From an uncultured Ignavibacteriales bacterium (lineage in GTDB: Bacteria; Bacteroidota; Ignavibacteria; Ignavibacteriales; Ignavibacteriaceae): a DNA stretch of 64,000 nucleotides. The position numbers and the translations under genes are program-made. Below are positions 10,268 through 44,600 of the stretch, one piece after another. Position 1 is the stretch's first letter. Each line of letters begins with the position of its first letter. Location of the stretch: NCBI GenBank assembly GCA_963834015.1, contig CAWIAG010000004.1, forward strand, positions 1,749,926-1,813,925. The letters run 5' to 3'. The notes beneath the pieces are model-generated. The model was given only the letters and a program-made list of their open reading frames with translations, did no database searches and was not told the DNA's origin.

Positions 10268-10290
10268 ATTTTTATCCTCGGCTTTTATGA

Positions 10291-20957: not shown

Positions 20958-21022
20958 AATATTAAAAATTGAATTATTTAGAAAATAAAATTATTTACGG
21001 TAATATGCCATTTTAATGAATT

Positions 21023-21063: not shown

Positions 21064-21306
21064 AGATGTGTACCAGCAAACCATTAAATGAAAATTTATT
21101 TTTCATTATGAAAAATCTAAAATATTAAATATGCTCAAGTAATTATAACTTTTGTAATTGTTTTAATTTTTTGTGATTTTTATAAAATAACGACCAGAAA
21201 TAATATTAAATACCGGGATTAACTCCGTGCGGGTAATAATTCCGGCAAAACAAACAGATAAGATTTATTTATAAACTTAATTAAAGTAAGCAGTTCGGAG
21301 GAATGA

Positions 21307-22563: not shown

Positions 22564-22788
22564 ATTGATTTCACAAATAGTTTAAGATAATGAAAATATG
22601 CCGTTGATAAATTTAAAAGATACTTTCGCAGATACAGATTTAGGCGACTATGAAGCGGGGATATTAAAAGCAGTTGATACGTTGTGCATCAGATCAATTT
22701 TAAGAGTTAAGAAGAAAGTATAAAAGAAGCCCTATGGAAAAAATTCATTTGTTCAATGGCAATTTTAAAAGTATAAATGAGGTTAACC

Positions 22789-23742
22789 ATGCATGAAGTA
22801 ACATGTCTCGGGATAATCGTAGCTGATGTAATTGCAAGAACAGTAAACGCACTGCCGCAGGAAGGTAAACTTGATCTTATAGACCAGCTTGAACTGCATC
22901 TTGGAGGATGTGCGTCAAATGCGGCAGTTGATCTTGAAAAGATTGGAATAAAAACAGCAGTAATCGGAAGGGTTGGGGAGGATGGATTTGGTTCCTTTGC
23001 AATAAATGAAATGAAGCTTAACAATGTTAATGTTGAAGGTATAACAGTAAGTAATATAAGTAAAACTTCTGCTTCGGTTGTTTCGGTTCATTCAAACGGA
23101 GAGCGATCTTTCCTGCATCATATAGGGGCAAATGCAGATTTTGTAACTGATGATATTAACTATCCAATTATATTTAAATCAAAAATATTATTTATTGCCG
23201 GTGCATTGCTAATGCCGCGCTTTGACGGCATCCCTTCATCAGAAGTATTAAAAGCTGCACAGGAAGCAAAAATAATAACAGTAATGGACACTGCCTGGGA
23301 TTCAACAGGTAAATGGATGCAGAAAATTAAGCCATGTTTACCGTATCTGGATTATTTCATGCCGAGCCTTGAAGAAGCTGAAATGATATCGGGTAAAAGC
23401 AAGCCTGAAGATATTGCCGATGTATTCCTGGAGGCAGGAGTAAAAACAGCTGTAATAAAACTCGGTTCCAAGGGCTGTTATATTAAGAATAAATCAAATG
23501 AACAATATAATATTGGAGCATTCTTGGGAATTAAAACAGTTGATACAACGGGAGCCGGAGATTCATTTGCCGCCGGATTTATAACGGGAATACTCCGCGG
23601 ATGGGATATTCCGGCGTGCGGTGAATTCGCCAATGCTGTGGGGGCACATTGTGTTATGAAAGTAGGAGCTACATCAGGGATAAAAAAATTTGATGAGATA
23701 ATGGATTTTATAAATTCAAATAAAAAAAGAAATGTAAAATGA
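22789..23742 (+). CDS. PfkB-family carbohydrate kinase
   Basis: VTCLGIIVADV, LHLGGCASNAAVDL and DTTGAGDSFAAGF. I chose ATG 22789 because an SD-like tgaggt precedes it. The track start is 22777. Confidence 0.85.
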   Translation: MHEVTCLGIIVADVIARTVNALPQEGKLDLIDQLELHLGGCASNAAVDLEKIGIKTAVIGRVGEDGFGSFAINEMKLNNVNVEGITVSNISKTSASVVSVHSNGERSFLHHIGANADFVTDDINYPIIFKSKILFIAGALLMPRFDGIPSSEVLKAAQEAKIITVMDTAWDSTGKWMQKIKPCLPYLDYFMPSLEEAEMISGKSKPEDIADVFLEAGVKTAVIKLGSKGCYIKNKSNEQYNIGAFLGIKTVDTTGAGDSFAAGFITGILRGWDIPACGEFANAVGAHCVMKVGATSGIKKFDEIMDFINSNKKRNVK

Positions 23743-24284
23743 CAAATAAAACCGAACTTGAATATGCAAGAAGCAGGGCTTTGAATTACTTCCTAAAGGC
23801 TAAAATAACTCTTTCTGAGAAAGAAAAAGAAAACATTGAAGTAGCCGATTTTGGACTAAACAGGTTAAATGAAATAGGCCTTCAAATTCTTGTCTATGTA
23901 AATACAGAAAGGTGCTGTGCCAAAGAGCTTGTCCTTTTCCCTTATCAAATATGCCCTGAGCACCGTCATCCGGATATCAATGGAATCCAGGGAAAAGAGG
24001 AAACATTCAGATGCCGGTTCGGGAAAGTGTACTTATATATTGACGATGAGCCTTCAGAAAACATTTCTGCTGTTATTCCAAAAGATAAACAGAATAGTTT
24101 TACCGTAAAACACGAAATAATTCTTAATCCCGGCGATCAATATACACTTAAACCCGGAATCCTTCACTGGTTTCAGGCTGGCTCAAAAGGTGCAGTAGTA
24201 TCGGAATTTTCGACCAGGAGCAGCGATGAATCTGATTACTTTACCGACCCTGAAATAAAAAGAATACCTGAAATTGAATATTAA
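23739..24284 (+). CDS. D-lyxose/D-mannose ketol-isomerase family cupin
   Basis: ELVLFPYQICPEHRHPDINGIQGKEETFRCRFGKVYLY matches the Lyx_isomer cupin metal-binding region. Its ATGA start overlaps the PfkB stop. Confidence 0.75.
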   Translation: MTNKTELEYARSRALNYFLKAKITLSEKEKENIEVADFGLNRLNEIGLQILVYVNTERCCAKELVLFPYQICPEHRHPDINGIQGKEETFRCRFGKVYLYIDDEPSENISAVIPKDKQNSFTVKHEIILNPGDQYTLKPGILHWFQAGSKGAVVSEFSTRSSDESDYFTDPEIKRIPEIEY

Positions 24285-24347
24285 AAATACATAAAAACCC
24301 GAAAAGCGATTTTAAATAGCCTGATTTTAAAATAATACGGATATAAA

Positions 24348-25208
24348 ATGGGAATACTTGGTATTGATATTGGTGGCACGAATATTCGTACCGGATTGGT
24401 AGAAGACAATAAATTAGTTAAGGTTGAATCCATTGAGGTACCCAAAAGCGGTACTAAAGATGAAATAATTAATAACATAGTTACAATGATCCAAAAGTTC
24501 AGCACTAAAAAGATAAATGGAATAGGCATAGGTGTACCAAGCGTGGTTGACATTGAAAAAGGTATTGTATATGATGTTCAGAACATTCCTTCATGGAAAG
24601 AAGTTCATCTTAAGAAAATATTAGAAAAAGAGTTTAAGGTTCCCGTCTATATTAACAATGATGCCAACTGCTTTGCGGCGGGTGAGAAATATTTCGGCAG
24701 CGTGAAAAAGTATAAGAATATTATCGGCTTAATAATTGGTACGGGGCTTGGTGCGGGTATTATAGTTAACAATCAATTATACTCGGGAAATAATTGCGGA
24801 GCCGGCGAATTCGGGATGATACCCTTTAAAAATAATAATTATGAATATTACTGCTGCGGCCAGTATTTTAATAATGAATTTGGTAAATCGGGTGAAGAGA
24901 TTTTAGCAAGTGCTGAAAAAGGTAATCGCCTTGCTTTAAAAATATTCGACGAATATGGTTCTAATTTAGGCGAAGCCATTAAAATGATTATGTATGCCTT
25001 AGATCCCGAAGTAATTATTCTTGGGGGATCAGTTAGTAAATCATATAAATTTTTCGAAAAAGTAATGTGGAAATCGATAAAAAGATTCGCATATGCAAAA
25101 TCCGCTGCCAAAATAAAAATTGAAGTTTCTAAAGTGAAACATATTGCCATTCTGGGAGCTGCCGCAATATACCTGGATGTGCAGGAAAAGAACTCAATAA
25201 TAAATTGA
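24348..25208 (+). CDS. ROK-family sugar kinase
   Basis: LGIDIGGTNIR at the N-terminus, NDANCFAAGE and GTGLGAGII. Confidence 0.85.
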   Translation: MGILGIDIGGTNIRTGLVEDNKLVKVESIEVPKSGTKDEIINNIVTMIQKFSTKKINGIGIGVPSVVDIEKGIVYDVQNIPSWKEVHLKKILEKEFKVPVYINNDANCFAAGEKYFGSVKKYKNIIGLIIGTGLGAGIIVNNQLYSGNNCGAGEFGMIPFKNNNYEYYCCGQYFNNEFGKSGEEILASAEKGNRLALKIFDEYGSNLGEAIKMIMYALDPEVIILGGSVSKSYKFFEKVMWKSIKRFAYAKSAAKIKIEVSKVKHIAILGAAAIYLDVQEKNSIIN

Positions 25209-25410
25209 ATAATAAAAATTATGATTCTTATACATTGCCGCATTGATAATTAATTCAGGGCGGCAAGCTAAATATTGAATTATCAGAGAACGCAAAAGAG
25301 TAGATTTTAGGGAAGTGTAACGTGAAGTTAACAAAATTACCGTTTTTTATAAATTTTAATATGAATTAGGTAAATTTAGTTAATGTATAAATTTTAATAA
25401 CAGGTTAAGC

Positions 25411-25935
25411 ATGAAAAAACATTTGTAATTTTAGTTTTGCTAATATTTACATACACTGCGTGGGCACAGCCAATACGCCGGGCGGAATATCCGCGTCCTC
25501 AATTTGAGCGGAGTACGTGGATAAATCTTAACGGTACCTGGACTTATTCGTTTTATTTTGGTAATTCCGGCAAAAACAGGAATTTACAGGATAGTAAAGG
25601 TTTTGATGATAAAATTATTGTTCCTTTCTACCCGGAAAGTAAATTGCCCGGTGTTGAGCACAAAGACTTTATAAATAATATGTGGTACCAGCGTAAGATT
25701 TCAATTCCTGCCGGCTGGAGCAATAAAAATATCTTATTGAATTTCGGAGCAGTTTACTATCTGACCGAAGTTTATATCGACGGCAAATTTATAGGCCGGC
25801 ACTTCGGAGGGACGTCTTCATCAAAAAGTATTTGAAAAACGTTTTCACTACTGGGCAGATAAACTTGGTTACCTGACCTGGAGCGAGTTCTCAAGTTGGG
25901 GATCAGATTATAATAATGTAGAATATTATGAATAG
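25411..25935 (+). pseudogene. Decayed glycoside hydrolase family 2 gene: start frameshift, internal deletion and 3' truncation
   Basis: ATG 25411 (MKKH..) hits a stop after 5 codons. The +2 frame then continues KTFVILVLLIFTYTAWAQ, a signal peptide, into a GH2 sugar-binding domain (..NILLNFGAVYYLTEVYIDGKFIGRHFGG) that stops at 25835. A shifted frame at 25828-25935 reads FEKRFHYWADKLGYLTWSEFSSWG, a GH2 TIM-barrel fragment, and then stops. Confidence 0.75.
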
Positions 25936-26279
25936 TCTGCAGCATGGTTAAAGGTTTGAAATACTCTACAATTATTTTGAATCTTTTCATCGAAGTTCAG
26001 TTTAAAAGCAATTTTAAAGCTTAATATTATAAAATTGCGTTCGATGTCCAGATAAAATAGATGAATCAAACGAAAATATTTTGTCAAAAAAAATGTGCTG
26101 ATTTTGTAGAAAAATAAATTTGCCAAACGAATCAAATTTTATTGCCGGAATACAGAAGTACCTCTGCAGCACTATGATCCAGGCAGGTAGATTTAAATCA
26201 ATAAAAAAAATGATGCTTATAAAGTAATTTAAGCTCATACTAAAGGAAGTGTGAAACATAGTTAAAAACTCTTAGTATT

Positions 26280-26317
26280 TCCTCTCTTTGTTTTTAACTA
26301 TCGAGAGGATTTTTTTT
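26280..26317 (+). terminator. Orphan terminator-like hairpin plus T8 in a gene-free AT-rich gap
   Basis: The stem pairs tcctctc (26280-26286) with gagagga (26303-26309). tttttttt follows at 26310-26317. There is no credible ORF upstream. Confidence 0.45.
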
Positions 26318-26443
26318 AAGACCGGGTGTTGAAGCAATCTTATTTATAGCATACATTATTAGAGAGAATTTTAAATTTTAAATACTATATCTCTATTTAT
26401 TAAACAATTATTAAATAATGAAAAAACAGATATAAAAATTATA

Positions 26444-27838
26444 TTGGGAAAAATGATGAGAAATCTAAACGCCATATTATGTGTAATTCTAATTTGCATA
26501 AGCTTACACGCCGGCGACAAGGGATGGACAAATTTATTTAATGGCAAAAATCTTGACGGTTGGAAAGTATTAAACGGTACTGCAGAATTTAAGGCTGAAA
26601 ACGGCTGTATTATTGGGATATATAAACCCAATACACAAAATACTTTTTTGGCAACGACGAAGAATTATGAAAATTTTATTCTTGAATTAGAAGTAAAAAT
26701 GGATACGTCATTAAACTCCGGAGTGCAGATCAGGAGCAGTTGCCAGGCGGATTATAGAAACGGGGTTGTTCACGGAGACCAGGTGGAAATAGACGGGTCT
26801 TCACGTGCATGGAGCGGCGGTATTTATGATGAGCAGGGCAGAGGATGGTTATATAATCTTGAGTGTAATCAAAATGCTAAAGCCGCATATAAAAACGGGA
26901 AATGGAATAAATATCATATCGAAGCTATCGGGAATAATATCCGCGTTTGGATTAACGGAATTCAGACGGCAGATCTTGTAGACGATACTGCCTTAAGCGG
27001 ATTTATTGCATTACAGATACATAGTATTGATAATAATATTAATACCGACCGCACTGTCCAATTTAAAAACTTAAGAATGAAGTCAACGAATCTTGACAAA
27101 GAGAAACGCCCCGAATCAAATAAAATTCCCCAAATAAGTTTTCTTAAGAACAAACTTACAGAAAGAGAAAAAAAAGAAGGATGGAAATTACTATGGGACG
27201 GTAAAACAACAAACGGCTGGCGCGGTGCAAAATTGGATCACTTTCCTGAAAAAGGATGGCATGTTACTGATGGAATTCTAACAGTAGAAAAAAGCGGCGG
27301 ATATGAATCAAGAAACGGCGGGGATATTGTAACCATAATGAAATACAAGAATTTTGAACTGGAAGCTGACTTTTTGTATACCAGGGGTGCCAACAGCGGG
27401 ATAAAATATTTTGTTGATACGGATTTAAATGACGGGCCGGGTTCGGCGATAGGCTGTGAATACCAGATACTTGATGATGATGTTCATCCCGATGCAAAAC
27501 TGGGTGTAAACGGCAACAGGACATTAGCTTCGCTTTACGATCTAATCCCGGCTAATGCTCTTATTTATTCCCCGCATGAAACCACACCTAAACGTGTAAA
27601 TAAGTATGGCTGGAACAGGGCTAAAATAGTGGTTGAAGGAAACCATGTTGTTCACTATTTAAATGGAATTAAATTGGTTGAATATGTTCGCGGAACACAG
27701 ATGTGGAGAGCGCTTGTTGCATACAGTAAGTACAAGAAATGGCCGAATTTTGGCGAACATGAATATGGCAATATTTTGCTTCAGGACCATGGTGATGAAG
27801 TATCGTTTAAAAACATTAAAATTCGTGAGTTGAAGTAA
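26444..27838 (+). CDS. Secreted protein with two tandem DUF1080 (3-keto-disaccharide hydrolase-like, concanavalin fold) domains
   Basis: Signal peptide. Domain 1: [15 protein letters not shown]...NSGVQIRS...VQFKNLRMK. Domain 2: [16 protein letters not shown]...GCEYQILDD...[20 protein letters not shown]. Confidence 0.8.
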
Positions 27839-31099: not shown

Positions 31100-32902
31100 T
31101 TATATATCGGATTTTGGGGCTTCCTCTTTCAGCTTGTCGTGGACCATCATACCGATGAGAACATTCATTATTGATCCGTCACCGTCTGCACCGCCTCCTG
31201 CAATAATATCCGGCACCCATTTATTTGCACTTCCGGCCAGGTTCTTAGAGACTTCTATTGCTGCGTAATTGCTTGACTGCATCGATTTAATTTTTAAGGT
31301 AATTACATCTGCTTCAGCCGTACCAACCGCTTTAATTTTCTCTCCCTCAGCGGCGCCTACTATCTTGAGGACGGTAGCATCCGCTTCTGCGTTAATAGTT
31401 TTTGATTTAGCTTCACCTTCGGCTTTTTTTATTGCTGCCTGCGCCGCGAAATCATTTATCTGAACCGTACGCTCAATGCTGACGACGTTTGCCTGTGTAT
31501 CCGCCATTGCTTTAGCCTGCTGAAGATCTTTTCTTGTTTCTTCGGCTAGCCGTTGTGTGTCATACGTAATTTTTTCCTGCTCGGCTATTTTCCGGTCAGT
31601 CAGGGTTTTCATCAGTTCCGCAGGAGGTGTAATATCTCCTATTAGAGTATCAACGGCGTTCACATTATAGTCGATAAGCGCTTCACTAATTGAAGCCTTT
31701 GCCTCTGACTGCCGTTCACTACGTTTTTTTAAAAAATCAATTACATCAGACCGTTGGGCAGCATTGCGGAAGTAATTTCCGATAGTGGGTTCGAGAACCT
31801 GAGTAACCAGGTTGGGCATATTTCCAAACCGGGCAATTACTTTTGGCGCATCGTTTCGTGGTATGTGGATGATTTGACTTACGTCAAGGTTGAAGGTAAA
31901 TCCGTCAAAGGACCTGACTGTGATAGTTGATAGTTTCTCATCCAGCTTATGAGCTTCGCTTTTATTTGTAGCCCAATTAAGGACAACATTTGCCGTAGGA
32001 ACAATTTCAACCTTGTGAGTGTATGGATTTATAGGATATTTCCCGGGATCCAGGGGCTCAATCCAAACGCCTTTTTGGCTTTTTGAGACAAGATTACCAT
32101 GTTTGAAAGTATCTCCTGTTACATCCTTACCTTCTTCTCCTACATAGGCGATGACAACACCGACATTAGCAATTGGTACGTCCGTCATTGGTTTCTGTTC
32201 AACTGTAGCGAACTTAGGGTTCAAGAAATAACGGCCCGCAAGAATAACCTGTTCCTGCAAACCTTTGTAGCCGCCGTTTGTTATAAATGTTTCCGGATCC
32301 TGATACATATTGTGCCCGGGAATTTCCTTGCCGGCAATTTCCCCTGTTGGTAGCGGTTTCCCGTCTTTTGTAGTTACAACACCGACCATATTGTCGGGAA
32401 TTTCAACTACATCCTCGGTATAAACTGTAAACAATGATGTATTAATCCTGTATGTACCGGGAGGTATAATAGAAATCTGGGGACCACGCTCGCCGCCGTT
32501 TTCAATAAAGGCACGTGCATCCTGGAAAGATTTACATTCCACTGTTCTAGCAAGGACTCTACCGCCGGAAAGTGGTTTACCATCACGTGCCTCAACAGTT
32601 GCGATTTGGTTTCGCTCGACAGTAATAAATTTTTGCAGCTTAATAATATATTGCCAAGGCCACAACCAAAAGTGAATTCCGGGAGCGAGAGTGTCTGCCT
32701 GAAGCCCTGCTTCACCCTTTAAGGCGATGATCGCCCCGTCAGGGAGTGTCCTGTTCCTGCCAAGCAGAACCCATTTTTTGTTAACAATGCCGATTGAATC
32801 TTCCGGAACCAATACTACTCCAAACAGTCTTAGTACCAGTTTATTTGCTATTAGAATTATTATGATTAATAATACCCACCAAAAACTCAATACTGTATCC
32901 AT
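31100..32902 (-). CDS. Flotillin-like SPFH/Band-7 protein
   Basis: N-terminal TM helix, an SPFH-like core, and a C-terminal Ala/Glu-rich coiled repeat (AEGEAKSKTINAEADATVLKIVGAAEGEKIKAVGTAEADV). Confidence 0.75.
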   Translation of the reverse strand: MDTVLSFWWVLLIIIILIANKLVLRLFGVVLVPEDSIGIVNKKWVLLGRNRTLPDGAIIALKGEAGLQADTLAPGIHFWLWPWQYIIKLQKFITVERNQIATVEARDGKPLSGGRVLARTVECKSFQDARAFIENGGERGPQISIIPPGTYRINTSLFTVYTEDVVEIPDNMVGVVTTKDGKPLPTGEIAGKEIPGHNMYQDPETFITNGGYKGLQEQVILAGRYFLNPKFATVEQKPMTDVPIANVGVVIAYVGEEGKDVTGDTFKHGNLVSKSQKGVWIEPLDPGKYPINPYTHKVEIVPTANVVLNWATNKSEAHKLDEKLSTITVRSFDGFTFNLDVSQIIHIPRNDAPKVIARFGNMPNLVTQVLEPTIGNYFRNAAQRSDVIDFLKKRSERQSEAKASISEALIDYNVNAVDTLIGDITPPAELMKTLTDRKIAEQEKITYDTQRLAEETRKDLQQAKAMADTQANVVSIERTVQINDFAAQAAIKKAEGEAKSKTINAEADATVLKIVGAAEGEKIKAVGTAEADVITLKIKSMQSSNYAAIEVSKNLAGSANKWVPDIIAGGGADGDGSIMNVLIGMMVHDKLKEEAPKSDI

Positions 32903-33123
32903 ACTATATTTTCCTCCTATTTTTTTGAGCCGGTTAAAGATTTTACGTGGAGCTAAAGAGTTGACAACGTAAAATAAATAAGAAATAAAACGAAATCAAG
33001 ATAAGCATTAAATTATAGTTTTGGCTCTATTATTTTACGACCTTTTTACTTTAATTGTAACTGTTCATTAAGAATTGTTTGCTCTTTAATTTAAAATATA
33101 ATTACATAACTATTCAGAGTGTA

Positions 33124-34017
33124 ATGGAAGGTATTGTTTTCGATATTCAAAGGTTTTCACTACATGACGGCCCAGGGATAAGAACAACAGTGTTTCTAAA
33201 AGGCTGCCCGCTGCATTGTGTATGGTGTTGTAACCCGGAATCGGTTAAAAACTCGCCTCAATTGGCTTTTATCGAAAAGAACTGCAGTATGTGCAGGAAC
33301 TGCATTACGGCGTGTAAAGAAAATGTATTTTCTTTTTGCGGCGAGAACCTGAAAACCGATTTCTCAAACTGCAATTTGTGCGGAGACTGTATAGAAGCAT
33401 GTGATACAGGAGCATTAAAATTATTCGGCTATAGGGTAAGTGCAGATGCCGTTATTGCCGAGGTTATTAAAGATATTAGTTTTTATAATAATTCCGGCGG
33501 CGGCCTGACGCTTTCAGGCGGTGAACCGCTAGCACAACCGGACTTTGCGATTGAAATTCTTGAAGGTGCAAAGAAATATAATATCCATACCTGTGTTGAG
33601 ACTTCAGGTTTTGTAAATAAAAATTTAATTTTAAAAACTATACCGTTTATCGATATGTATTTATTTGATTTTAAAATTGCATCCGAATCCATGCATCAAA
33701 AATATACAAGTGCCGGCAACAGAATGATACTTGAAAATTTAGAGCTATTAATTAAAAACGGATGCTCTCTTATTCTCCGGTGCCCCATTGTCCCGGGGAT
33801 AAATAATGATGAAATGCATTTCAAAAGCATTGCGGAATTATCAAGGAAATATCCCGGGCTTAAAGGTGTTGAGCTTATGCCTTACCATAACTGGGGCATA
33901 GATAAATATAAACAAACAGGAGTGGAACCTGATTTTAAATTCGGATCAGGAACGAAAGAAGATAAACAAGTTTGGATAAAAAAAATTAGTTCATTCGGCG
34001 GGAAAAATATTTATTAA
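33124..34017 (+). CDS. Glycyl-radical enzyme activating enzyme (radical SAM)
   Basis: FSLHDGPGIRTTVFLKGCPLHCVWCCNPE (CxxxCxxC) plus two ferredoxin-like Cys clusters (CSMCRNCITAC and CNLCGDCIEAC). I moved the start to ATG 33124; the track start is 33079. Confidence 0.9.
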   Translation: MEGIVFDIQRFSLHDGPGIRTTVFLKGCPLHCVWCCNPESVKNSPQLAFIEKNCSMCRNCITACKENVFSFCGENLKTDFSNCNLCGDCIEACDTGALKLFGYRVSADAVIAEVIKDISFYNNSGGGLTLSGGEPLAQPDFAIEILEGAKKYNIHTCVETSGFVNKNLILKTIPFIDMYLFDFKIASESMHQKYTSAGNRMILENLELLIKNGCSLILRCPIVPGINNDEMHFKSIAELSRKYPGLKGVELMPYHNWGIDKYKQTGVEPDFKFGSGTKEDKQVWIKKISSFGGKNIY

Positions 34018-34142
34018 TTGGCGTATAGGTGAAAATTGGTTCAATCATGGTGTTTTATTAAAATTAATATTGTATGATGCTTCGCTTATAATTATTTAAT
34101 TTTAGCCTGCATAAACAAATTAACAATAAGTAATTTATTTGT

Positions 34143-36389
34143 ATGATTACTGCAAACGATTTAGCTGTTTTACTCACGGAGATGACGCGTGTTTATAGGG
34201 AAAACACAAATAATAAATATATGCGCGAAGCTGCATTTCTGAAAGTTCAACAAAAGGCATTGTTCACTCCTATAGAAAAAGACGATTTATTTGTTGGGAG
34301 AACGAAGCAATTACCGATTGGATTTTTACCACAGTCCGATGAAGGGTCCCTTGGTTATTATATCCATCCCGTTGCAATTAAACAGCTTTTGGACGATCCC
34401 GTTCTGACTGCCGGGAACCAAGTAAAGCTTAAGGAAATTGAACAATTCTGGAATGAAAACTCCACAGTAACAAAAGCCAAATCGGCTTTCACCACGGATA
34501 TGATGAAAGCGCTGCCGAGCGACATGTATACCACAGAATCAGGTATAGCTTTTACATTATGGAGAATGAGCGGAGTTCAATTAGATTATGCAAAATTAGT
34601 CAGGCTTGGGATACCGGGTTTAAGGGATGAAATAAGAAAACGAAACTTAAACGCAGTCCCCGGTACGGAGCGATGGAATTTATACCAGTCAATGCTGAAG
34701 GCTCTTGATAACCTGGTTGAATTATGCCAAAGTTATTCGAACGAAGTACGCAGGTTATATAAAGACGAGACCGATACCGGCAGGAAAAAAGATTTAGCTG
34801 AGATGGAGCGCATCCTTCATAAATTACCTGAATCAAAGCCCGGGAGTTTCCGTGAGGGGATTCAATTAATTTATATTTATAATGCCGCGGACGGAGCCAG
34901 AAATTACGGCAGACTGGACAATGCACTGGCTGATTTATACTGCACGGATATTGAAAAAGAAATTATCGACAAGGAAGAAGCAATCCGGCTGCTTTCCGGT
35001 ATGTGGCGGCTTATTATAGACCGCGGCTACAGGTATGACAGCAGGATAATAATAGGAGGCAAAGGAAGGTTTAATGAAGAAAAAGCAAATGCCCTTGCCG
35101 TGACGATTATAGAAACTACACGCAGAGTAAAAGATATAGTGCCGCAATTGGCTTTGCGCTTCAATAAAAATCAAGACCCGGTTTTGTATAATATGGCACT
35201 GGATATTATAGGCGAAGGCAACCCTTACCCGATGCTGTATAACGACGATGTTAACATCCCGTCAGTTATGGAATCGTTTGACATCCCGGAAAATGAAGCC
35301 GAACATATTATCCAGTTCGGGTGCGGCGAATATGCGCTCGACCATAGAAGCGTAGGTACACCAAGCGGGGTGATAAATTTACTTCAGGCGCTGAACGTTA
35401 CAATTAATAATGGGATTGATCCCGTTACACAAAAACTAATGGGCATGCCGACAGAGCGGTATACAAAGTACGGCGAGTTTGAAACGTTTGATGACCTTCT
35501 AAAAGCTTATAAAGAACAGGTTGAATATCATGTGGATTTTCTTGCCAAACATGAAGAACTTGAATATTTGTATGCGGGAAAAGATGCAGCATACTTATAC
35601 TCAAGTATGCTGATGGATGACTGTATTGAAAGAGGAAAAGGAATTTATGAAGGAGGGATCAGGTACCTGGGAGGGACGCTTGAATCCTACGGCAACAGCA
35701 ATACGGCAGATGCTCTTACCGCAATAAAAAAATTAGTTTACGATGAAAAAATCCTTTCAATTTATGAATTAAAGAGCTGCCTTCAGGCAAATTTTTCCGG
35801 CTATGAGCGCATTCAGAAAAAAATGTTAAACTGCCCTAAGTACGGAAATGATAACGAAACGGCAGATAACATGTTGCTTGAAGTGCATAACCATTTATGC
35901 AATTATACATTAAAGCAAAAACACAGCACATCTCTTCATTCATATCTCGTGGTTGTTATAAATAACGATGCAAATACTATCATAGGCGAACATACATCAG
36001 CGTCGGCGGATGGGAGAAAAGCATTTGCTTATATGAACCCGGGCAATGCCCCTGTGGACGGGATGGACAAAAACGGAGTTACTGCATTCCTGAATTCTAT
36101 TGTTAAACCGGATACGCGGATACATGCAGGAGCAGTGCAAAATATGAAATTTTCAAAAGAAATGTTTTCAGAGTACCGGGATAAATTAGAAATTCTGCTG
36201 GCAACGTACTGGCAAAACGGCGCTGCCCAGGCAATGCTTACGGTTGTAGGGCGTAACGACCTTGAGGCTGCTATGGAACACCCGGAACTTTATCAAAACC
36301 TTTTGGTACGTGTGGGAGGCTTTAGCGAGAGATTTGTCAATTTACCACGGCACACTCAGCTTGAAATATTGAACAGAACTTTGTACTGA
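34143..36389 (+). CDS. Glycyl-radical enzyme, PFL2/dehydratase-lyase-like, substrate unknown
   Basis: C-terminal glycyl loop LLVRVGGFSERFVNL (36307-36327) and thiyl loop IQFGCGEYALD (Cys codon 35322-35324), of the GCxE type. At 748 aa it is short for the family. Confidence 0.85.
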   Translation: MITANDLAVLLTEMTRVYRENTNNKYMREAAFLKVQQKALFTPIEKDDLFVGRTKQLPIGFLPQSDEGSLGYYIHPVAIKQLLDDPVLTAGNQVKLKEIEQFWNENSTVTKAKSAFTTDMMKALPSDMYTTESGIAFTLWRMSGVQLDYAKLVRLGIPGLRDEIRKRNLNAVPGTERWNLYQSMLKALDNLVELCQSYSNEVRRLYKDETDTGRKKDLAEMERILHKLPESKPGSFREGIQLIYIYNAADGARNYGRLDNALADLYCTDIEKEIIDKEEAIRLLSGMWRLIIDRGYRYDSRIIIGGKGRFNEEKANALAVTIIETTRRVKDIVPQLALRFNKNQDPVLYNMALDIIGEGNPYPMLYNDDVNIPSVMESFDIPENEAEHIIQFGCGEYALDHRSVGTPSGVINLLQALNVTINNGIDPVTQKLMGMPTERYTKYGEFETFDDLLKAYKEQVEYHVDFLAKHEELEYLYAGKDAAYLYSSMLMDDCIERGKGIYEGGIRYLGGTLESYGNSNTADALTAIKKLVYDEKILSIYELKSCLQANFSGYERIQKKMLNCPKYGNDNETADNMLLEVHNHLCNYTLKQKHSTSLHSYLVVVINNDANTIIGEHTSASADGRKAFAYMNPGNAPVDGMDKNGVTAFLNSIVKPDTRIHAGAVQNMKFSKEMFSEYRDKLEILLATYWQNGAAQAMLTVVGRNDLEAAMEHPELYQNLLVRVGGFSERFVNLPRHTQLEILNRTLY

Positions 36390-36411: not shown

Positions 36412-38256
36412 TCAGATGGTTTTTATGTAATCCAATACGTTTAGCAAGGCAAGATAGTTATCTACCAAAAAACCTTCATAACCCCAACATTCGTTTTTCC
36501 ATGTTTTCCAGTCTTTTGTCATTTCACTTCCGCTGCAGTATCCCTGAAATGCATTTGTTTTATAGCTTTCAAGCAGCGGGAATAATATTTCTTCGGCTTC
36601 ACGGTGCATATTTAATTTGAAAAGTGCATGAATAGTATAATACACGTAACATCCACTGGCGCCCCCGTTTTCATATACCTGAAAATTCTGATAGCCGTAA
36701 CGCGGATTCTGGTCGGTGTAATCCTTATCTGCGATTGGAACCAGGTTGCCGGGCAATCCCAGTCGGAAATCCGTAAAGCCGACTTGCTTCATTTTACCGA
36801 GTAGTGTCAGCATAATTTTTTTAGCTTCTTCCATACTAATAAGATCATAACAAACGGCAACACTGTTAACAAAGGTAAAATAATAATCATGCAATTGCCC
36901 GTCTTCACTGCGCCAGCCTGCCAGAATTCCCGTTTCGGGATTATAAAATTTTGAAAAGTATTGGCTCTTAAGTTTATTTGCAAAAGCTGCAAAGTAAAGG
37001 CTGTCTCCAGAATATCCAAGCGTTTCTGCAACATCTGCCAGTAAAGTTAAAGCTTTGTAAGCCAGGGCGTTCGAATAAGCGTCATCATGCCCGAAACCGA
37101 TTGTATCCCACCAGTTTGCCGGCCGTTTAAAATCTTCTTTGCTCCAGCTATTGGAATTCCCCGAATATCCGTATTCAATAATCCCGTCATGATTTCTATC
37201 TGTGGCAATCATGCCTGCAGCCCAATCCTTAACCGCGTTATAGTTTTGTTTTGCCCAATCGTTATCTTTTGTATCCATGATATAATAACACGCTGAAATA
37301 ATAAGTGAAGGAGCGCTGTCCGATGAATCGAATTTACTTTTCCATACATCGCCTTTATAACCAACCTGTCCGTAGGCTTTCATTCCACCGATATATTCAT
37401 CCAGTGAATTCCTGACAAGATCCATAGCGCCGACGCCTTTTACAAGTTCGGGAGTATGCCGCGCCATTTCTGCATAAATAAAAACCGTAAATGCACATGC
37501 GTCGCTTGCGGAATTATTGGCAAGGCTCCGTATGCGCGGGTTTAATTGGAAAATATTAATATAATTGCGCTTGAAACCGTCAAACCTTGAATCGTTTTTT
37601 ATTTTATCAATAACAGGATAAACAGCAACAGGATCAAAGCGATAAGTAATATCCGGATGATCAATAGAGGCCGGAGAAAAAACTAATTTTACATAAGGGT
37701 CTTTAACGTCGCGGTCTGCATCATAATAAACGTTTGCGCCGGGGTCGCTACAGTAAATACGAAAACTTCCCAGTCCCGGGAAATGCAATAAGCATGGAAA
37801 ATTTACAATGTTTTTCCCGGGCATTATTCCCAACATGGTACAGTGATTTGTTTTATGTGAAAATGTGATTGAAAAGGGAAGGAAATTTTCTTTTTTATTG
37901 TACCTTGTACGGATACTAAAAGTATGAGGGTGCATAATAAATTGCCAATCAGGTATATCTCCCCGGCTACCTTTTGAAAGGTATGATATGCTATCTGACT
38001 TTACAATACTTTCATAATTTATTTCAGGTTTTTGACCTTTTAATAATAAAAGGTTTTCCGGGAATTGCCTGCTGCCTAAACTATCAGCGGAGAAAAAAGA
38101 TAACTCAGGGCGGGCTCTTAATAATTGTAATTTAAAGAAAGGTGACTTATAAGTGAAATCCTTTCCTGTATCCGGCAAAAATGCTAAAGGTGTTGGTATT
38201 CCGGCAGCAATAGCAGCCAGTGCAGTCTTTTGAATAAATTGACGGCGCGAAATCAT
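36412..38256 (-). CDS. TAT-exported protein with a C-terminal (alpha/alpha)6 six-hairpin glycosidase-like domain, family unknown
   Basis: Twin-arginine signal SRRQFIQKTALAAIAAG. WWDTIGFGHDDAYSNALAYKALTLLADVAETLG and YENGGASGCYVYY follow the pattern of GH63/GDE/rhamnosidase-type toroids. Confidence 0.45.
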   Translation of the reverse strand: MISRRQFIQKTALAAIAAGIPTPLAFLPDTGKDFTYKSPFFKLQLLRARPELSFFSADSLGSRQFPENLLLLKGQKPEINYESIVKSDSISYLSKGSRGDIPDWQFIMHPHTFSIRTRYNKKENFLPFSITFSHKTNHCTMLGIMPGKNIVNFPCLLHFPGLGSFRIYCSDPGANVYYDADRDVKDPYVKLVFSPASIDHPDITYRFDPVAVYPVIDKIKNDSRFDGFKRNYINIFQLNPRIRSLANNSASDACAFTVFIYAEMARHTPELVKGVGAMDLVRNSLDEYIGGMKAYGQVGYKGDVWKSKFDSSDSAPSLIISACYYIMDTKDNDWAKQNYNAVKDWAAGMIATDRNHDGIIEYGYSGNSNSWSKEDFKRPANWWDTIGFGHDDAYSNALAYKALTLLADVAETLGYSGDSLYFAAFANKLKSQYFSKFYNPETGILAGWRSEDGQLHDYYFTFVNSVAVCYDLISMEEAKKIMLTLLGKMKQVGFTDFRLGLPGNLVPIADKDYTDQNPRYGYQNFQVYENGGASGCYVYYTIHALFKLNMHREAEEILFPLLESYKTNAFQGYCSGSEMTKDWKTWKNECWGYEGFLVDNYLALLNVLDYIKTI

Positions 38257-41693: not shown

Positions 41694-44600
41694 TTATTCC
41701 CTGACTTTTACTGTTAAGTTAAATGATTTCTTAACCCTGCCGCAGACTGTACCGGTTTGGTCGTCAACAAGCAGTTCAACTTTATATATTCCTTCTTGTT
41801 TATATTTATGAAATACAATCGGCAAAGCAGATGATTCACCATCCCCAAATTTCCAGACTATCTTTAATAAATTCCCATCGGCATCGACCACGTTGGATGC
41901 ATCGAATTTAACTTCGTCATTTGCACTGTTTATATAAACAACAGAATCCTGCAATTCAGGAATCTGAGGCGGTTCAACTGCATAAACCAGTGTTGAATCA
42001 CTATAAAAAATATTATTCATTCCATCGCTCAAAACAAAATAGTAAATATATTTACCGCTTTTCTGAACAGAATGATTTAATATCCTGCTATCGGAGTTAA
42101 ATAAACCGTTTTTGCCGTTCCATTTAAATTTAAACTCGGCGTCTTTAAATTCCGTTCGAATTACCGGGTTTACGGTAAACATCTCCCCGGCACAAACATT
42201 GATAGATTTGGGAATAGAGCAATCCGGATAATTAATTACTTTCAGGTACTTTGTAGATTCACTAATGCTGTTTTGAGTATTTAATTTGTCTTTGACCACC
42301 AGCCTTATCTTATTTAAACCTGTGCGGCTGAAAATCGTTTTAAATTCAGCTTCATGTGAAACATCAACATCATTTACATACCATTCAAAATCAAGTTCAC
42401 CGCCGGAGTTGGAAGATTTGCTTCCATCCAGTTCAATCTGTTCATTTACAAATAAGTATTCAGGCAGTGAAAAATCAGCAACAGGCTCATCAAAAATATT
42501 TAAATAAATTGTATCCCTGTCGGTGTTATTCTCAACATTTGTATTATCGGTAACTGTTAAAATAACCCTGTACTTCCCTTTGAAAGAATAGGAATGCAAT
42601 ACGGAAATTCCTTTACCGGTAGAGCCGTCGCCGAAATCCCAAATATATTTGGATATACTACCGTCGGGGTCAAATGATTTTTTACCGTCAAATGAAACCG
42701 GTTGATAAACTGCAGCCGTTTGTACAGAACCTATTTTTGCAACCGGGGGAGCATTAACAGAAACCGGCTTTAAAAATAAAGCGGAACTGCATTCATTTTT
42801 AGAATCCGTTTGAATTCTAAGAGTTACGGTAAAATTGCCGGACTTTGAATAGGTGTGGTTTACAACTTTTCCTTTTGTGTAAGAACTATCACCAAAATCC
42901 CAGTTATAATCTGTAATGTTTCCCACACTAGTTGAACTGGAAGATGCATCAAATACCTGCAAAGAATTCTGAGGAATGGAATCGCATGAAGCAAACGAAG
43001 CATAAGGAGCGTCCACAACCGTAACGGTTATCTTATCTAAAGATGTATTATCGCAGCTTCCTTTTTCATTTCCCGTAATCGTGAGCGTAACTTTATATTT
43101 GCCCGTCTTATAGTATGTGTGAACAGGCCTTGCCCCGGCGCCGGTTTCGCCATCGCCGAAATCCCAATCATAGCTTGCAATGGTTCCTCCGGCAGCGGTG
43201 GATTTAGAACCGTCAAATTTAATTTGTGAATTGGCACAAATAATAGTATCGCTGCCCGCGTTTGCAATAGGCGCTTCGTTAACATTCAAAAGTTTTGTAG
43301 TAATAGCCGAACTGCAGGCTAAACCGGAATTATCGGTTACTGTTAAAATAACTTTATGCGCCCCGCCTTTTTTGAATACTTTAAATACACTGCTTCCTGA
43401 TAAATGGGAAGAATCATCAAACGACCATAAATAATCCAGTTGAGTATTGTCGAAAGACCTGGATTTTAAACCGTTCAATATTACTATATCGCCGGCACAA
43501 ACTGTAGTATCAGCTCCTGCATCAGCAACAGGAGGGCGGTGAATTTTTACTGTAATGTTTTTCTTTACGGAAGAATTAGACAAGTTAAGCCCGTCGTTTA
43601 CCGTTAATGTAACCGGAAAAACACCGTAGTCCTTAAAATTATGAGTAATAATTCCGCTTCCCAGAACTTCCTTTTGATCCGGGAAAGTCCAGGAGTAGCT
43701 CAACTGGTCGCCGTCCGGATCGTATGAACCCGAGGCATCAAAAGTAATTATTTTATTGCACGATTCAATATATTCCTGTGTCTTTATAACAGGCGGCGTG
43801 TTGATCTTTATGTATATTGTGTCCGGGACATTAGAATTGGCAACACCGGCATTGTCGGTAACAGTTAAAACTGCGCAGTACAAACCCGATTTATTGAATG
43901 ACCTTTCTACTACTTTTCCTGTTTTCATCAAGCCGTCGCTGAATACCCATGAATAGAATTTTATAGTACCATCGACATCGTATGATTTGGAGGCATCAAA
44001 CCTTAACTTTTGATTCGGGACGGCGATGGCAGTATATTCAATTTTAGGAACCGGCGGCGAGTTGACTATTACTTTTGCATAATCCACACTTGATAAAGGC
44101 TTAACAAAATCATCTGTAACTTCAAGCCCTACTGTATAAGTTCCGGGTTCTTTGAATGCATATTCAAACCGTCTGCCTTCCGAAATGAATTTATTATCTA
44201 CAAACCACCTGCTTTTGAGGGCTCTTCCATCGGGATCAACGGAGCGCGAGCTGCTGAAGCTAACCGTTTGTCCCGGGGCAACCACCTGGTCCGGGCCTAT
44301 ATCCGCAACCGGCCTTCTATCTATTATTACTTTTGAAGTATCAAAAGCAGAATTATTCTTTGCTTCGGTATTATCATATACCTGCAGTGTAACAGTGTAA
44401 GCACCGGCTGTTCTGTAAGTATGCGAAACTGTTTTCCCTTCATCAGTATAGCCGTCTCCAAAATCCCAGATATATCTTGTAATAGTGCCGTCTACATCGT
44501 AAGATTTTGAACCGTCAAAAACTGCATAACCGTTGTTCAGGTACTGATCATTTACAATTTTTGCAACAGGCTGCGCATTAACCGTGATTTCAACAGAGTC

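Follow-up and report, generated by a model that had tools for sequence, protein, structure and literature searches.

The 64-kb stretch of DNA analysed here (the window) contains a radical SAM activase gene followed by a gene encoding a glycyl radical enzyme (GRE) of the CxE type (Table 1). The ORF listing and our motif scans agree with the earlier note on this DNA, which had described an activase with two extra ferredoxin-type clusters located 125 bp upstream of a 748-aa GRE. The mechanically listed activase ORF, 33079..34017 on the plus strand, starts with a TTG at 33079; a plausible start is the ATG at 33124 (MEGIVFDIQRFSLHDGPGIRT...), which gives the protein the customary N-terminus. The activase matches the Pfam families Radical_SAM, Fer4_12 and Fer4, and it passes the NCBIfam model for GRE activating proteins, TIGR02494 (326 bits, cutoff 174). 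Its SAM-cluster motif CX3CX2C is CPLHCVWC at residue 28, and its ferredoxin-like insert contains the motif CX2CX2CX3C twice (CSMCRNCITAC at residue 54 and CNLCGDCIEAC at residue 83), a combination shared with the GRE activating enzymes that have such an insert (TIGR02494, PFLE_PFLC). However, the activase scores below every substrate-specific activase equivalog; the top one is the HypD activase HypD-AE (301 bits, cutoff 425), and HpsH and CutD gave 290 (cutoff 430) and 261 bits (cutoff 360). The GRE matches the Pfam families PFL-like (PF02901, 8.2e-104) and Gly_radical (PF01228, 6.2e-19). Its AF2 model (pLDDT 89.3, pTM 0.89), which is a prediction and not a solved structure, was about equally close to all solved GREs in Foldseek (TM 0.80-0.84). 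Based on these intact motifs, the pair is predicted to be a functional GRE with its dedicated activase, and the GRE is predicted to be an oxygen-sensitive radical enzyme.

A cognate activase adjoins the GRE in the same orientation in 54 of 78 relatives, of which 17 are activase-first and 37 enzyme-first. Thus, the activase-first order pointed out in the earlier note is present in the window but is not peculiar to it. The spacer between the two genes contains no recognisable RNA element, a scan of the whole window gave no Rfam family at gathering score, and promoter- or terminator-like sites at the spacer were not in excess over shuffled sequence.

The neighbours are indeed, as the earlier note had it, a flotillin-type protein (Band_7/SPFH, 9.7e-28) and a TAT-exported glycosidase-like protein, the latter recognised by its twin-arginine start and a weak match to Bac_rhamnosid6H (six-hairpin glycosidase; 8.9e-07, 28.9 bits, cutoff 24.5). 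Also in line with that note, no aldehyde or alcohol dehydrogenase gene adjoins the pair, and a search with a shell-protein query detected no microcompartment shell homologue, either in the window or at 89 related loci. The description of the pair as an orphan was right insofar as it has no operon partners in the window, and its substrate is not readable from this local context; but 5-20 kb upstream there is a cluster of carbohydrate genes (13453-27838). Within this cluster, about 9 kb upstream of the pair, are three sugar genes that may possibly be related to the GRE, a weak connection: these families also flank the GRE at loci L087 and L007, although the PfkB and Lyx_isomer-like proteins of the window share only 26-28% identity with the L087 copies. 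The window contains no deoC, AraC, PhyH, FGGY kinase, aldo-keto reductase, nucleoside hydrolase or SMP30 gene, and our functional argument therefore rests on the homologues (43-83% identical), in which these partners are found.

Table 1. Features of the GRE locus and its surroundings in the window
Feature	Position	Strand	Basis
PfkB kinase (ribokinase/IolC-like), D-lyxose-isomerase-like cupin and ROK kinase	22777..25208	+	family matches
Band_7/SPFH protein	31100-32902	-	Pfam
Radical SAM activase, 297 aa	33124..34017	+	Pfam, NCBIfam and cluster motifs
Activase/GRE spacer, 125 bp, AT-rich	34018..34142	+	sequence inspection
GRE, 748 aa, CxE type	34143..36389	+	Pfam, predicted fold, clade analysis
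beta1-loop segment R141-M-S-G-V145	34563..34577	+	alignments
Segment G295-YRYDS-R301, directly 3' of the 14-aa clade deletion	35025..35045	+	alignments
Cys loop FGCGEYALD, residues 392-400, catalytic Cys394 and Glu396	35316..35342	+	translation
Strand motif I606-N607-N608-D609, at the columns of GD Tyr640-Pro-Ser-Ser	35958..35969	+	alignments
Gly loop RVGGFSERF, residues 723-731, radical-bearing Gly726	36309..36335	+	translation
Protein with twin-arginine N-terminus (MISRRQFIQK...), weak Bac_rhamnosid6H match	36412-38256	-	Pfam

The GRE belongs to a clade outside the characterised families

The GRE does not reach the cutoff of any curated NCBIfam model. The best score was obtained with TIGR01774, the model of the PFL2/glycerol dehydratase subfamily (296 bits, cutoff 678), and the models for HypD (NF043068; 271 bits, cutoff 1100), CutC (TIGR04394; 230 bits, cutoff 1050), pyruvate formate-lyase (PFL; TIGR01255; 63 bits, cutoff 994) and the sulfonate C-S/C-O enzymes HpsG (NF048011) and HpfG (NF048009; 242 and 217 bits, respectively, cutoff 1000) were all missed. 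The same holds for all 28 clade members tested, which were far under every curated cutoff; the best E-value to TIGR01774 among them (7.7e-113) corresponds to a score clearly under the cutoff. Furthermore, clade members share 23-33% identity with glycerol dehydratase (GD), HypD, CutC, HpyG, YbiW and PflD, whereas these six enzymes share 34-42% among themselves, and the window GRE itself is no more than about 28% identical to any GRE of solved structure. A neighbour-joining tree groups the 78 relatives into a single clade on a long stem (0.61), which branches outside the cluster of the same six enzymes. Relatives were found in 227 species genomes of more than eight phyla and, counting those that carry xCGE and R[VIL]GG[FWY], amount to some 80-90 full-length clusters when grouped at 50% identity. 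We searched the literature for a paper on this clade and found none. Judged by its sequence, the protein is a member of a large, deep-branching clade distinct from all characterised GREs. This bears out the proposal of the earlier note that it represents an uncharacterised clade; the phylogeny did not place it inside any known one.

Catalytic loops and putative pocket residues

The translation gives the two loops letter by letter as they had been read before. The thiyl loop is of the GCxE type, as claimed, since C394-G-E396 has the CxE motif of the eliminase/isomerase classes. In the alignment, C394 and E396 are present in all 79 relatives, G395 in 78 and Y397 in 76 of 79; solved GREs have V or I where the clade has G395. 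In the Gly loop, G725 is found in 77, F727 in 75 and R730 in 72 of 78 relatives, at positions where solved GREs have A (G725) and Y (F727). The published GRE fingerprint containing the radical glycine, RVxG[FWY]x6-8[FL]x4Qx2[IV]x2R (PMC13450708), is exactly matched by the window GRE (RVGGFSERFVNLPRHTQLEILNR from residue 723), and by 72 of 78 relatives with the strict and 76 of 78 with a relaxed pattern. The loops, which had been called atypical, thus differ in their residues from those of solved enzymes, but these differences are clade signatures inside canonical motifs. Replacement of the glycine by Ala, Ser or Thr, as in an aminoacyl radical enzyme, was considered and ruled out for the window GRE, which has G726. 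Among more distant full-length relatives lacking the strict RVxG, a readable C-terminal glycyl motif contains GG in 19 of 20 cases and GS in one (P0203); four others (P0174, P0185, P0211 and P0242) are truncated or divergent at this motif.

The whole clade has two internal deletions, of about 7 and 14 aa, which together with a shorter N-terminus explain the short length remarked upon earlier. The clade-invariant residues are R141, N254, R301, G395, Y397, P407, E514, I-N-N at 606-608, Q666, G725 and F727. Mapping of the pocket was based on alignments at about 25% identity, beside indels and without coordinates, and the correspondences that follow are to be read accordingly. In the beta1-loop, the clade-specific R141 is present in 78 of 79 relatives, and the column of residue 145, occupied by Val in the window GRE and by G, T, V or A in the clade, is His in GD, HypD, YbiW and PflD. 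In GD this residue, His164, is the presumed general acid that protonates the leaving hydroxyl (PMC13450708). R301 (78 of 79 relatives) replaces an Asn of GD (Asn341), HypD, CutC and HpyG. Position 299, at the column of GD Tyr339, is Tyr or Phe in these four enzymes and varies by subfamily in the relatives (D in 36, H in 29 and N in 12). I606, N607 and N608, each present in 78 of 79 relatives, take the place of GD Tyr640-Pro-Ser. Likewise, HypD His160, Asp278 and Phe340, which we take to be functional residues, correspond to V/G, G and D here. The suspicion that the active site departs from those of known enzymes is therefore confirmed at the level of alignments: the beta1-loop His is missing and further pocket positions differ. 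The pocket signature of the window GRE (V145 Q146 D250 G251 R253 D299 S300 R402 D609) is identical at loci L003 and L004, and L007 differs at position 251 alone.

Gene neighbourhoods of the homologues

In 37 of 78 loci, a divergent, sugar-type AraC/RhaS-like regulator with a cupin sensor lies within three genes of the GRE, each time on the opposite strand. The tightest non-regulatory partner is a PhyH-type Fe(II)/2OG oxygenase, present at 18 loci and in at least five phyla. It has its H-x-D...H motif and Arg intact, and its nearest solved relatives, SnoK and EvdO2, act on sugar C-H bonds. Other partners are Gfo/Idh/MocA proteins (17 loci), sugar-binding proteins (13), ABC ATPases (12), GH2 (11), aldo-keto reductases, nucleoside-hydrolase-like proteins and SMP30 lactonases (10 each), XylB-type kinases (9; 581 bits, cutoff 380) and GH92 (8). 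Further glycosidases (GH30, GH130, GH78, GH10 and GH5) are also found near the homologues, as are MFS transporters, TonB receptors, and LacI, GntR and hybrid two-component regulators; proteins similar to URO-D/MtaA recur at five loci. In several phyla, the kinase, transporter, deoC and lactonase genes run in the same direction as the GRE gene, in arrays that resemble operons.

A deoC gene, whose deoxyribose-phosphate aldolase product scores above its equivalog cutoff (194-224 bits, cutoff 117), lies within 10 kb of the GRE at seven independent loci (L003/L085, L004, L007, L086, L087, L088 and L089), all belonging to the subfamily of the window GRE (62-67% identity). This amounts to seven of roughly 19 informative loci in this one subfamily and to none in the others. 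At L089, deoC, the activase gene and the GRE gene follow one another on a single strand, with a 31-bp spacer and a 4-bp overlap. The neighbours of the homologues include no recurring sulfite reductase or exporter, aldehyde dehydrogenase or microcompartment genes, and no genes of 1,3-propanediol, propanol, proline or trimethylamine (TMA) pathways. Besides the window copy, the GRE loci L091, L009 and L001 have no informative partners. The carriers are polysaccharide-degrading lineages with glycosidase-dense genomes, so that the glycosidase association may be partly background, and the glycosidase families differ from locus to locus.

Discussion

The comparison of homologue neighbourhoods, which the earlier note had suggested, narrows the choice of substrate to carbohydrate-derived compounds: the sugar-use genes, and often a deoxyribose-phosphate aldolase gene, found in related bacteria point to a step in anaerobic carbohydrate breakdown. 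Because of this context, and of an unusually polar, Arg-rich pocket, the substrate is very probably a polyol or sugar derived from carbohydrate, which may be phosphorylated or carry a negative charge in some other way. The reading that we favour, and consider probable as a whole, is that of a new carbohydrate-acting, C-O-cleaving GRE that possibly yields a 2-deoxy sugar, its substrate being putative.

The CxE motif defines the 1,2-eliminase and isomerase classes of GREs and, based on this membership, we infer that the enzyme would cleave a C-O, C-N or C-S bond beside a hydroxyl-bearing carbon. The activase would place a radical on Gly726, from where it would pass to Cys394, whose thiyl would take a hydrogen from the hydroxyl-bearing carbon of the substrate. 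This hydroxyl would lose its proton to Glu396, the resulting ketyl radical would eject the oxygen substituent of the adjacent carbon, and Cys394 would give the hydrogen atom back. A dehydratase mechanism requires an acid other than the missing general-acid His of GD, for which H401 or D/H299 are guesses only.

In the subfamily of the window GRE, the oxygen removed may be the one at C2, which would give a 2-deoxy sugar, although this part of our reading is tentative. For example, a pentitol or pentitol-5-phosphate might be converted into 2-deoxyribose or 2-deoxyribose-5-phosphate, analogous to the conversion of glycerol into 3-hydroxypropanal, and deoxyribose-phosphate aldolase would then cut the product into acetaldehyde and glyceraldehyde-3-phosphate. 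The PhyH partner is left unaccounted for by the 2-deoxy-sugar model. A bolder version, which we regard as somewhat doubtful, extends this chemistry to the whole clade. Its members would be radical C2-deoxygenases of free sugars, alditols or their phosphates, producing 2-deoxyribose(-5-phosphate) or a related 2-deoxy sugar by a nucleotide-free and O2-free route that delivers it straight to deoxyribose-phosphate aldolase, and PhyH would be their oxygen-dependent counterpart.

The closest known systems are GD of C. butyricum (B12-independent; PDB 1R8W/1R9D) and 1,2-propanediol dehydratase (PD; 5I2G, 9RCO-9RCR), the best matches at 230 bits and TM 0.83. They have the CxE Cys loop, the glycyl fingerprint and the activase type in common with the window pair, and their dehydration of a polyol to a deoxyaldehyde is, by analogy, the type of reaction proposed here. 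On the other hand, they share only about 28% identity with the window GRE, they lack its two deletions, and their 1,3-propanediol dehydrogenase and microcompartment context does not surround the clade genes. The second-best match is trans-4-hydroxy-L-proline dehydratase, HypD (PDB 6VXC; 227 bits, full-length alignment).

The only characterised sugar-acting GREs are the isomerases YbiW and PflD (PDB 8ID7, 8ID0), C-O lyases of 1,5-anhydro-alditol-6-phosphates. It is conceivable, but unlikely, that the clade consists of such ether or anhydro-sugar lyases, which would eject an alkoxide (a ring oxygen, an O-methyl or another O-alkyl) instead of hydroxide and give a deoxy-keto sugar that is then phosphorylated and cleaved. 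The chemistry documented for YbiW and PflD uses the same CxE motif, an aldolase cleaves their product, and E. coli pflD-pflC likewise adjoins an AraC-type regulator gene. A PhyH partner would suit as an aerobic alternative cutting the same ether, XylB-type kinases accept 1-deoxy-ketoses, and the URO-D/MtaA-like proteins also fit. However, YbiW and PflD share only 26% and 25% identity with the window GRE, and their beta1-loop His is lost in the clade. In E. coli they depend on PTS uptake and the transaldolase-type aldolase FSA, whereas the clade is associated with ABC/MFS uptake, FGGY/PfkB kinases and DeoC, and the annotated neighbours of clade loci include neither PTS nor FSA genes. Moreover, the PhyH protein lacks sequence similarity to E. 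coli YbiU, and no consistent glycosidase family points to a natural source of anhydro- or methyl-sugars.

Less likely still, the sugar neighbours are incidental and the enzyme acts, like known eliminases, on a sulfonate, an amino alcohol or a small diol. The loci devoid of informative partners would fit such a substrate, and the two clade-specific arginines might just as well hold a carboxylate or sulfonate; GREs that are C-S lyases use two Arg and a Gln. Against this stand the sugar-type regulator at nearly half of the loci, the operon-like arrays described above, the lack of recurring sulfite, aldehyde dehydrogenase or microcompartment genes, and the position of the PhyH partner outside the relatives of sulfoquinovose dioxygenase. 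Finally, a divergent member of a characterised family (glycerol/propanediol dehydratase, hydroxyproline dehydratase or choline lyase) or a PFL is highly improbable: GD, PD and HypD are the best sequence and fold matches and the identical protein in the public record carries the name 'pyruvate formate lyase family protein', but the bit scores fall short of all equivalog and subfamily cutoffs by factors of 2 to 15, GD His164 is absent, Asp and Ile stand at GD Tyr339 and Tyr640, the corresponding pathway genes are not found nearby, and PFL itself is rejected by the single Cys (the Cys-Cys pair occurs in none of 78 relatives).

So far, the assignment of every new GRE clade has brought to light a new anaerobic reaction, such as choline cleavage to TMA, hydroxyproline dehydration, isethionate desulfonation and anhydroglycolysis. 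The present clade is large, its anaerobic, polysaccharide-degrading carriers belong to at least eight phyla, and it lies outside all characterised eliminases and isomerases; its recurring sugar regulator, kinases and dedicated deoC provide a concrete, testable pathway hypothesis. If the carbohydrate reading is true, radical enzymology gains a new reaction on carbohydrates, and anoxic carbon turnover one of its missing steps; if the product is a 2-deoxy sugar, this would be a new anaerobic route of sugar or polyol fermentation, widespread in Bacteroidota, Ignavibacteriota, Verrucomicrobiota and other polysaccharide degraders of sediment and gut. Even a variant dehydratase of a simple polyol would correct the common annotation as 'pyruvate formate-lyase'. 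Cultured carriers of the clade include Melioribacter roseus, Clostridium lacusfryxellense DSM 14205 and Nibricoccus sp. IMCC34717.

The gene pair encodes a glycyl radical enzyme and its activase

A gene for a radical-SAM activase is followed, after a spacer of 125 bp, by the gene for a glycyl radical enzyme (GRE). The activase scored 326 bits against the NCBIfam GRE-activase model TIGR02494 (cutoff 174), and it carries the motif CPLHCVWC (residue 28) and a pair of CX2CX2CX3C motifs (residues 54 and 83). The ORF list, the motif scan and the translations thus agree with the earlier note, which had described an activase with two extra cluster motifs 125 bp ahead of a 748-aa GRE, the sequences of the two catalytic loops, and a flotillin-type and a TAT-exported glycosidase-like neighbour. 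Around the pair, GC content (0.39-0.40) resembles that of the remainder of the window. An Rfam scan of the window returned 0 families at the gathering score, so that the spacer and the region upstream gave no sign of a riboswitch or other RNA element, and promoter and terminator consensus sites in the window were no more numerous than in shuffled sequence. A Band_7/flotillin-like long protein also adjoins the pair, on the opposite side, in the locus of an 83%-identical GRE (L001, 12452-14164, minus strand), and was not seen in more distant loci.

Features of the window (positions in window coordinates)
Feature	Position	Strand	Remarks
GH30-like protein	3609-5072	-	
GH78 alpha-L-rhamnosidase	10291-13161	-	full-length
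Carbohydrate cluster	13453-27838	+	co-directional
GFO oxidoreductase	15831-17243	+	in carbohydrate cluster
GH92	17430-19676	+	in carbohydrate cluster
413-aa protein	19716-20957	+	in carbohydrate cluster; no Pfam or NCBIfam match
Two-domain 3-keto-disaccharide hydrolase	26444-27838	+	in carbohydrate cluster
Band_7/SPFH protein	31100-32902	-	flanks gene pair
Activase	33124-34017	+	297 aa counted from ATG 33124; ORF list gives 33079-34017
GRE	34143-36389	+	748 aa; PFL-like (8.2e-104) and Gly_radical (6.2e-19) domains
Cys loop FGCGEYALD	35316-35342	+	translation
Glycyl loop RVGGFSERF	36309-36335	+	translation
Twin-arginine-signal protein	36412-38256	-	flanks gene pair; weak six-hairpin glycosidase match
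Large ORF	41694-46472	-	1592 aa
Large ORF	52770-57404	+	1544 aa
Large ORF	59625-63053	+	1142 aa

The catalytic loops keep the canonical motifs

The segment RVGGFSERFVNLPRHTQLEILNR of the GRE is an exact fit to the published fingerprint RVxG[FWY]x6-8[FL]x4Qx2[IV]x2R (2026 GRE review, PMC13450708). The thiyl loop retains the CxE motif, which is common to all C-O, C-N and C-S eliminases and to the isomerases HplG, YbiW and PflD (PMC13450708), and its proposed assignment to the GCxE type is therefore upheld. The Cys-Cys pair typical of pyruvate formate-lyase (PFL) is absent. By these three features, the catalytic machinery is canonical. The loops had been called atypical, and this holds for flanking residues, but not for the fingerprint and the CxE motif: the Cys loop has Gly, not Val or Ile, between Cys and Glu, and Tyr after Glu, and the glycyl loop has Gly, not Ala, before the radical Gly, and Phe, not Tyr, after it. 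These odd residues are family signatures of the clade formed by the GRE and its relatives with an xCGE Cys loop and an R[VIL]GG[FWY] glycyl loop.

The enzyme belongs to a separate clade

The GRE misses every curated NCBIfam model by a wide margin: it scored 296 bits for the PFL2/GD subfamily (TIGR01774; cutoff 678), 271 for HypD (1100), 242 for HpsG (1000), 230 for CutC (1050) and 63 for PFL (994). This last score and the lack of the Cys-Cys pair make the public name of an identical protein from an Ignavibacteriaceae metagenome-assembled genome (P0001, "pyruvate formate lyase family protein") misleading, as judged from sequence. Twenty-eight relatives likewise miss all curated models, the best TIGR01774 E-value among them being 7.7e-113. 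Among solved structures, the sequence comes closest to GD (230 bits) and HypD (227 bits), and identity to YbiW and PflD of E. coli is 26% and 25%, respectively. The AlphaFold2 model (pLDDT 89.3, pTM 0.89) matched all solved GREs at TM 0.80-0.84 with no favourite, and thus the fold does not discriminate among known GREs.

A protein search returned 578 relatives at E <= 1e-20; the best 120 have identities of 50-100% and belong to Ignavibacteria, Bacteroidales, Prolixibacteraceae, Limisphaerales and KSB1. When one genome per species was scanned by pattern, 227 stretches proved to encode a relative. These are spread over Bacteroidota, Ignavibacteriota, Kryptoniota, Verrucomicrobiota, Planctomycetota, Acidobacteriota, Chloroflexota, Bacillota, Cloacimonadota and further groups; named carriers include Clostridium lacusfryxellense DSM 14205, Nibricoccus sp. 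IMCC34717 and a metagenome-assembled genome assigned to Melioribacter roseus. In an exhaustive search of 50%-identity clusters (1256 clusters at E <= 1e-30), about 80-90 full-length representatives carry xCGE and R[VIL]GG[FWY], with scores from 812 down to about 380 bits, and generic RVAGY/GCVE enzymes start below about 290 bits. The idea of aminoacyl-radical variants among the distant relatives was rejected, since almost all readable motifs retain GG at the radical position and a single one (protein P0203) has GS.

The alignment covered 78 clade proteins of the retrieved loci together with YbiW, PflD, GD, HypD, CutC and HpyG. The lowest pairwise identity inside the clade is 40%; the clade is 23-33% identical to the six references, which are 34-42% identical among themselves. 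In the neighbour-joining tree the clade is monophyletic, with a stem of 0.61 and all six references on the opposite side. The length of 748 aa is explained by a shorter N-terminus and two clade-wide deletions, one of about 7 aa following residue 249 and one of 14 aa following residue 293. Near-invariant residues (76-79 of 79 sequences) are R141, N254, R301, R309, G395, Y397, P407, E514, I606-N607-N608, Q666 and G725, and F727 is present in 75 of the 78 relatives. The beta1-loop His of GD is assigned the protonation of the leaving hydroxyl (2026 GRE review, PMC13450708). According to the alignment, this His is shared by YbiW, PflD, GD and HypD and is G, T, V or A in the clade. The column of GD Tyr339, HypD Phe340 and CutC Phe395, which are reported to have structural roles in these enzymes, is D, H or N in the clade (residue 299), followed by an invariant Arg301. 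Because of these and other clade-specific changes, the pocket looks unusually polar and cationic.

Curated-model scores, tree, and loop and pocket residues rule out membership of the GD/PD, HypD, CutC or PFL families. The missed models, the monophyletic branch and the residue signatures bear out the proposal of an uncharacterised clade. By its motifs the enzyme clearly belongs, in mechanism, with the eliminase/isomerase-type GREs, but it has a remodelled pocket and a deep branch of its own. The characterised CxE GREs are GD, PD, HpfG, HypD, HpyG, HpzG, CutC, IslA/IseG, HpsG, HplG, YbiW and PflD, and whole GRE clades are still unassigned (PMC13450708). The superfamily is thus already known to hold many clades without an assigned substrate, of which this is one. 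Full-text literature searches found nothing on the clade, nor on a pairing of a GRE with DeoC or PhyH.

Genomic context of the relatives

ORFs were called in 80 genome loci and 9 metagenome loci and clustered by BLASTP, and cluster representatives were annotated. Recurrent partners are an AraC/RhaS-like regulator with a cupin sensor (37 loci, always on the opposite strand), a PhyH-type oxygenase (18), a Gfo/Idh/MocA oxidoreductase (17), a sugar-binding protein (13), an ABC ATPase (12), GH2 (11), an aldo-keto reductase, an IU-nucleoside-hydrolase-like protein and an SMP30 lactonase (10 each), a XylB-type FGGY kinase (9; 581 bits against a cutoff of 380), and GH92 and a phosphomannose-isomerase-like cupin (8 each). 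GH30, GH130, GH10, GH5, GH78, GH16 and GH13 also occur near clade GREs, as do MFS transporters, TonB receptors and LacI, GntR and hybrid two-component regulators. Four Ignavibacteria loci (L037, L042, L046, L047) have a long array in common: cupin, two aldo-keto reductases, flavodoxin-like protein, XylB, nucleoside-hydrolase-like protein, binding protein, ATPase, PhyH, divergent AraC, GRE, activase, SMP30, GFO and GH92. A microcompartment shell-protein query sequence had 0 matches in the window or the 89 loci, in line with the earlier statement that no microcompartment genes adjoin the pair.

The PhyH-type Fe(II)/2-oxoglutarate oxygenase is the closest non-regulatory partner of the oxygen-sensitive GRE in at least five phyla (L004, L006, L028, L030, L033, L056, L061, L078 and, in Ignavibacteria, L034-L038, L042, L046 and L047), and directly adjoins it in Verrucomicrobiota, Bacteroidota, Kryptoniota, Neomarinimicrobiota and Ignavibacteriota. 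The metal and 2-oxoglutarate motif is intact, H124, D126, H207 and R218 being invariant across 18/18 copies. Its solved relatives are SnoK, PHYHD1, PhyH and EvdO2, and the nearest, SnoK and EvdO2, act on sugar moieties.

The variable pocket positions 251, 253, 299 and 609 sort the clade into groups, whose gene orders differ as well. Position 299 is occupied by D in 36 sequences, by H in 29 and by N in 12, and these blocks follow gene order and the sets of neighbouring genes, which suggests that the clade covers several substrate specificities. In the window's group (D250-G251, R253, D299, D609), whose members are mostly Bacteroidota, the activase gene mostly comes first; in the Ignavibacteria-array group (D251, R253, H299, S609) the enzyme gene does. 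The window GRE has the same pocket signature as its relatives in L003 and L004, and differs from that in L007 at the single position 251.

Seven independent loci of the window's group (L003/L085, L004, L007, L086, L087, L088 and L089) encode a 237-247-aa protein, of which 3/3 copies tested passed the deoxyribose-phosphate aldolase equivalog (224, 212 and 194.5 bits against 117.3). Five deoC copies are 62-81% identical to that of L089, and the L007 copy only about 28%. In L089, deoC, activase and GRE run in this order on one strand, one junction being a 31-bp gap and the other a 4-bp overlap; in L086, activase, GRE and GH30 are divergent from deoC and a GntR regulator. By our estimate, chance would place a single-copy gene among the nearest ten genes at well under 1% of loci. 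The presence of deoC in 7 of about 19 informative loci is therefore a strong association.

Proposed reaction and alternatives

By sequence, the glycyl and thiyl machinery and the dedicated activase are intact. By analogy with its class, the thiyl radical would abstract a hydrogen from a carbinol carbon, Glu396 would deprotonate the substrate hydroxyl, and a vicinal oxygen substituent would be eliminated before the hydrogen atom is given back. The genomic context points to a sugar or polyol, and the clade substrate is probably a carbohydrate. At least in the window's subfamily, the DeoC link suggests a 2-deoxy-aldose or its 5-phosphate as product. The simplest chemistry would be terminal-diol dehydration of a pentitol or pentitol phosphate to 2-deoxyribose or 2-deoxyribose-5-phosphate, of which the conversion of glycerol to 3-hydroxypropanal by GD is an exact analogue. 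Aldo-keto reductases would fit this route by converting an aldose to an alditol, ribokinase-like PfkB and XylB-type kinases would fit as its kinases, nucleoside-hydrolase-like proteins would fit as a source of ribose, and two clade-specific arginines may form a phosphate site. As a variant, an aldose C1 radical could lead to a 2-deoxy-aldonolactone, opened by the SMP30 lactonase; this route would suit the other subfamily, which has lactonase and GFO partners.

The proposed mechanism does not account for the loss of the general-acid His or for the PhyH partner. An ether or anhydro-sugar C-O lyase similar to YbiW/PflD would account better for PhyH, as an aerobic alternative, but less well for DeoC, and we consider it rather unlikely. 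A non-carbohydrate substrate, conceivable for context-poor copies, is more improbable still, being disfavoured by the regulator and operon evidence. A sulfoquinovose C-S lyase with SqoD-like dioxygenase and SmoB-like reductase was rejected, as the solved relatives of PhyH do not include a sulfoquinovose dioxygenase; neither a GH31 sulfoquinovosidase nor a sulfite exporter is recurrent among the neighbour genes of the clade loci. The E. coli gene ybiU, beside ybiW, presumably encodes an oxygenase-like protein, but a sequence comparison detected no similarity between it and the PhyH partner, and it stays a loose lead. As a target for a new anaerobic carbohydrate reaction, the clade is well defined and accessible to experiment.

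URO-D-like proteins, a family that includes corrinoid methyltransferases, occur near the GRE in five loci (L007, L033, L054, L071, L079), which could hint at methylated substrates. The Clostridia contig L069 encodes two different uncharacterised GREs (1185-3752 and 9974-12238, both plus strand), each with an FGGY kinase as neighbour; identity of the first to the clade is only about 20%, and its best match is GD (213 bits).

Surroundings of the gene pair in the window

The window gene pair has no operon partners. In tblastn searches with the recurrent partner families, AraC-type regulator, PhyH, FGGY kinase, aldo-keto reductase, nucleoside hydrolase, SMP30 and DeoC were absent from the 64 kb, and GFO, GH92, GH78, GH30 and PfkB family members were found. 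The carbohydrate cluster further comprises a PfkB-HAD fusion, an MFS transporter, a ribokinase/IolC-like PfkB kinase, a D-lyxose-isomerase-like cupin and a ROK kinase, and looks like a route for glycoside 3-oxidation and mannoside utilisation. Its PfkB and Lyx_isomer-like genes were rejected as orthologues of the GRE neighbours in L087, the likeness being at family level (26-28% identity), and the window cupin is unrelated to that of the Ignavibacteria operon. Elsewhere, GH78 lies beside the GRE in L070, L079 and L087, and GH30 in L003, L005, L086 and L089.

Among the three very large ORFs, that of 1592 aa is made up to a large extent of 'FDGSKS...WDFGDG' units, as is typical of PKD-like repeats. 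The other two have C-termini resembling the C-terminal region of secreted GH13 proteins from other loci (39-42% identity over about 95 aa), and this region is probably a secretion-sorting domain.
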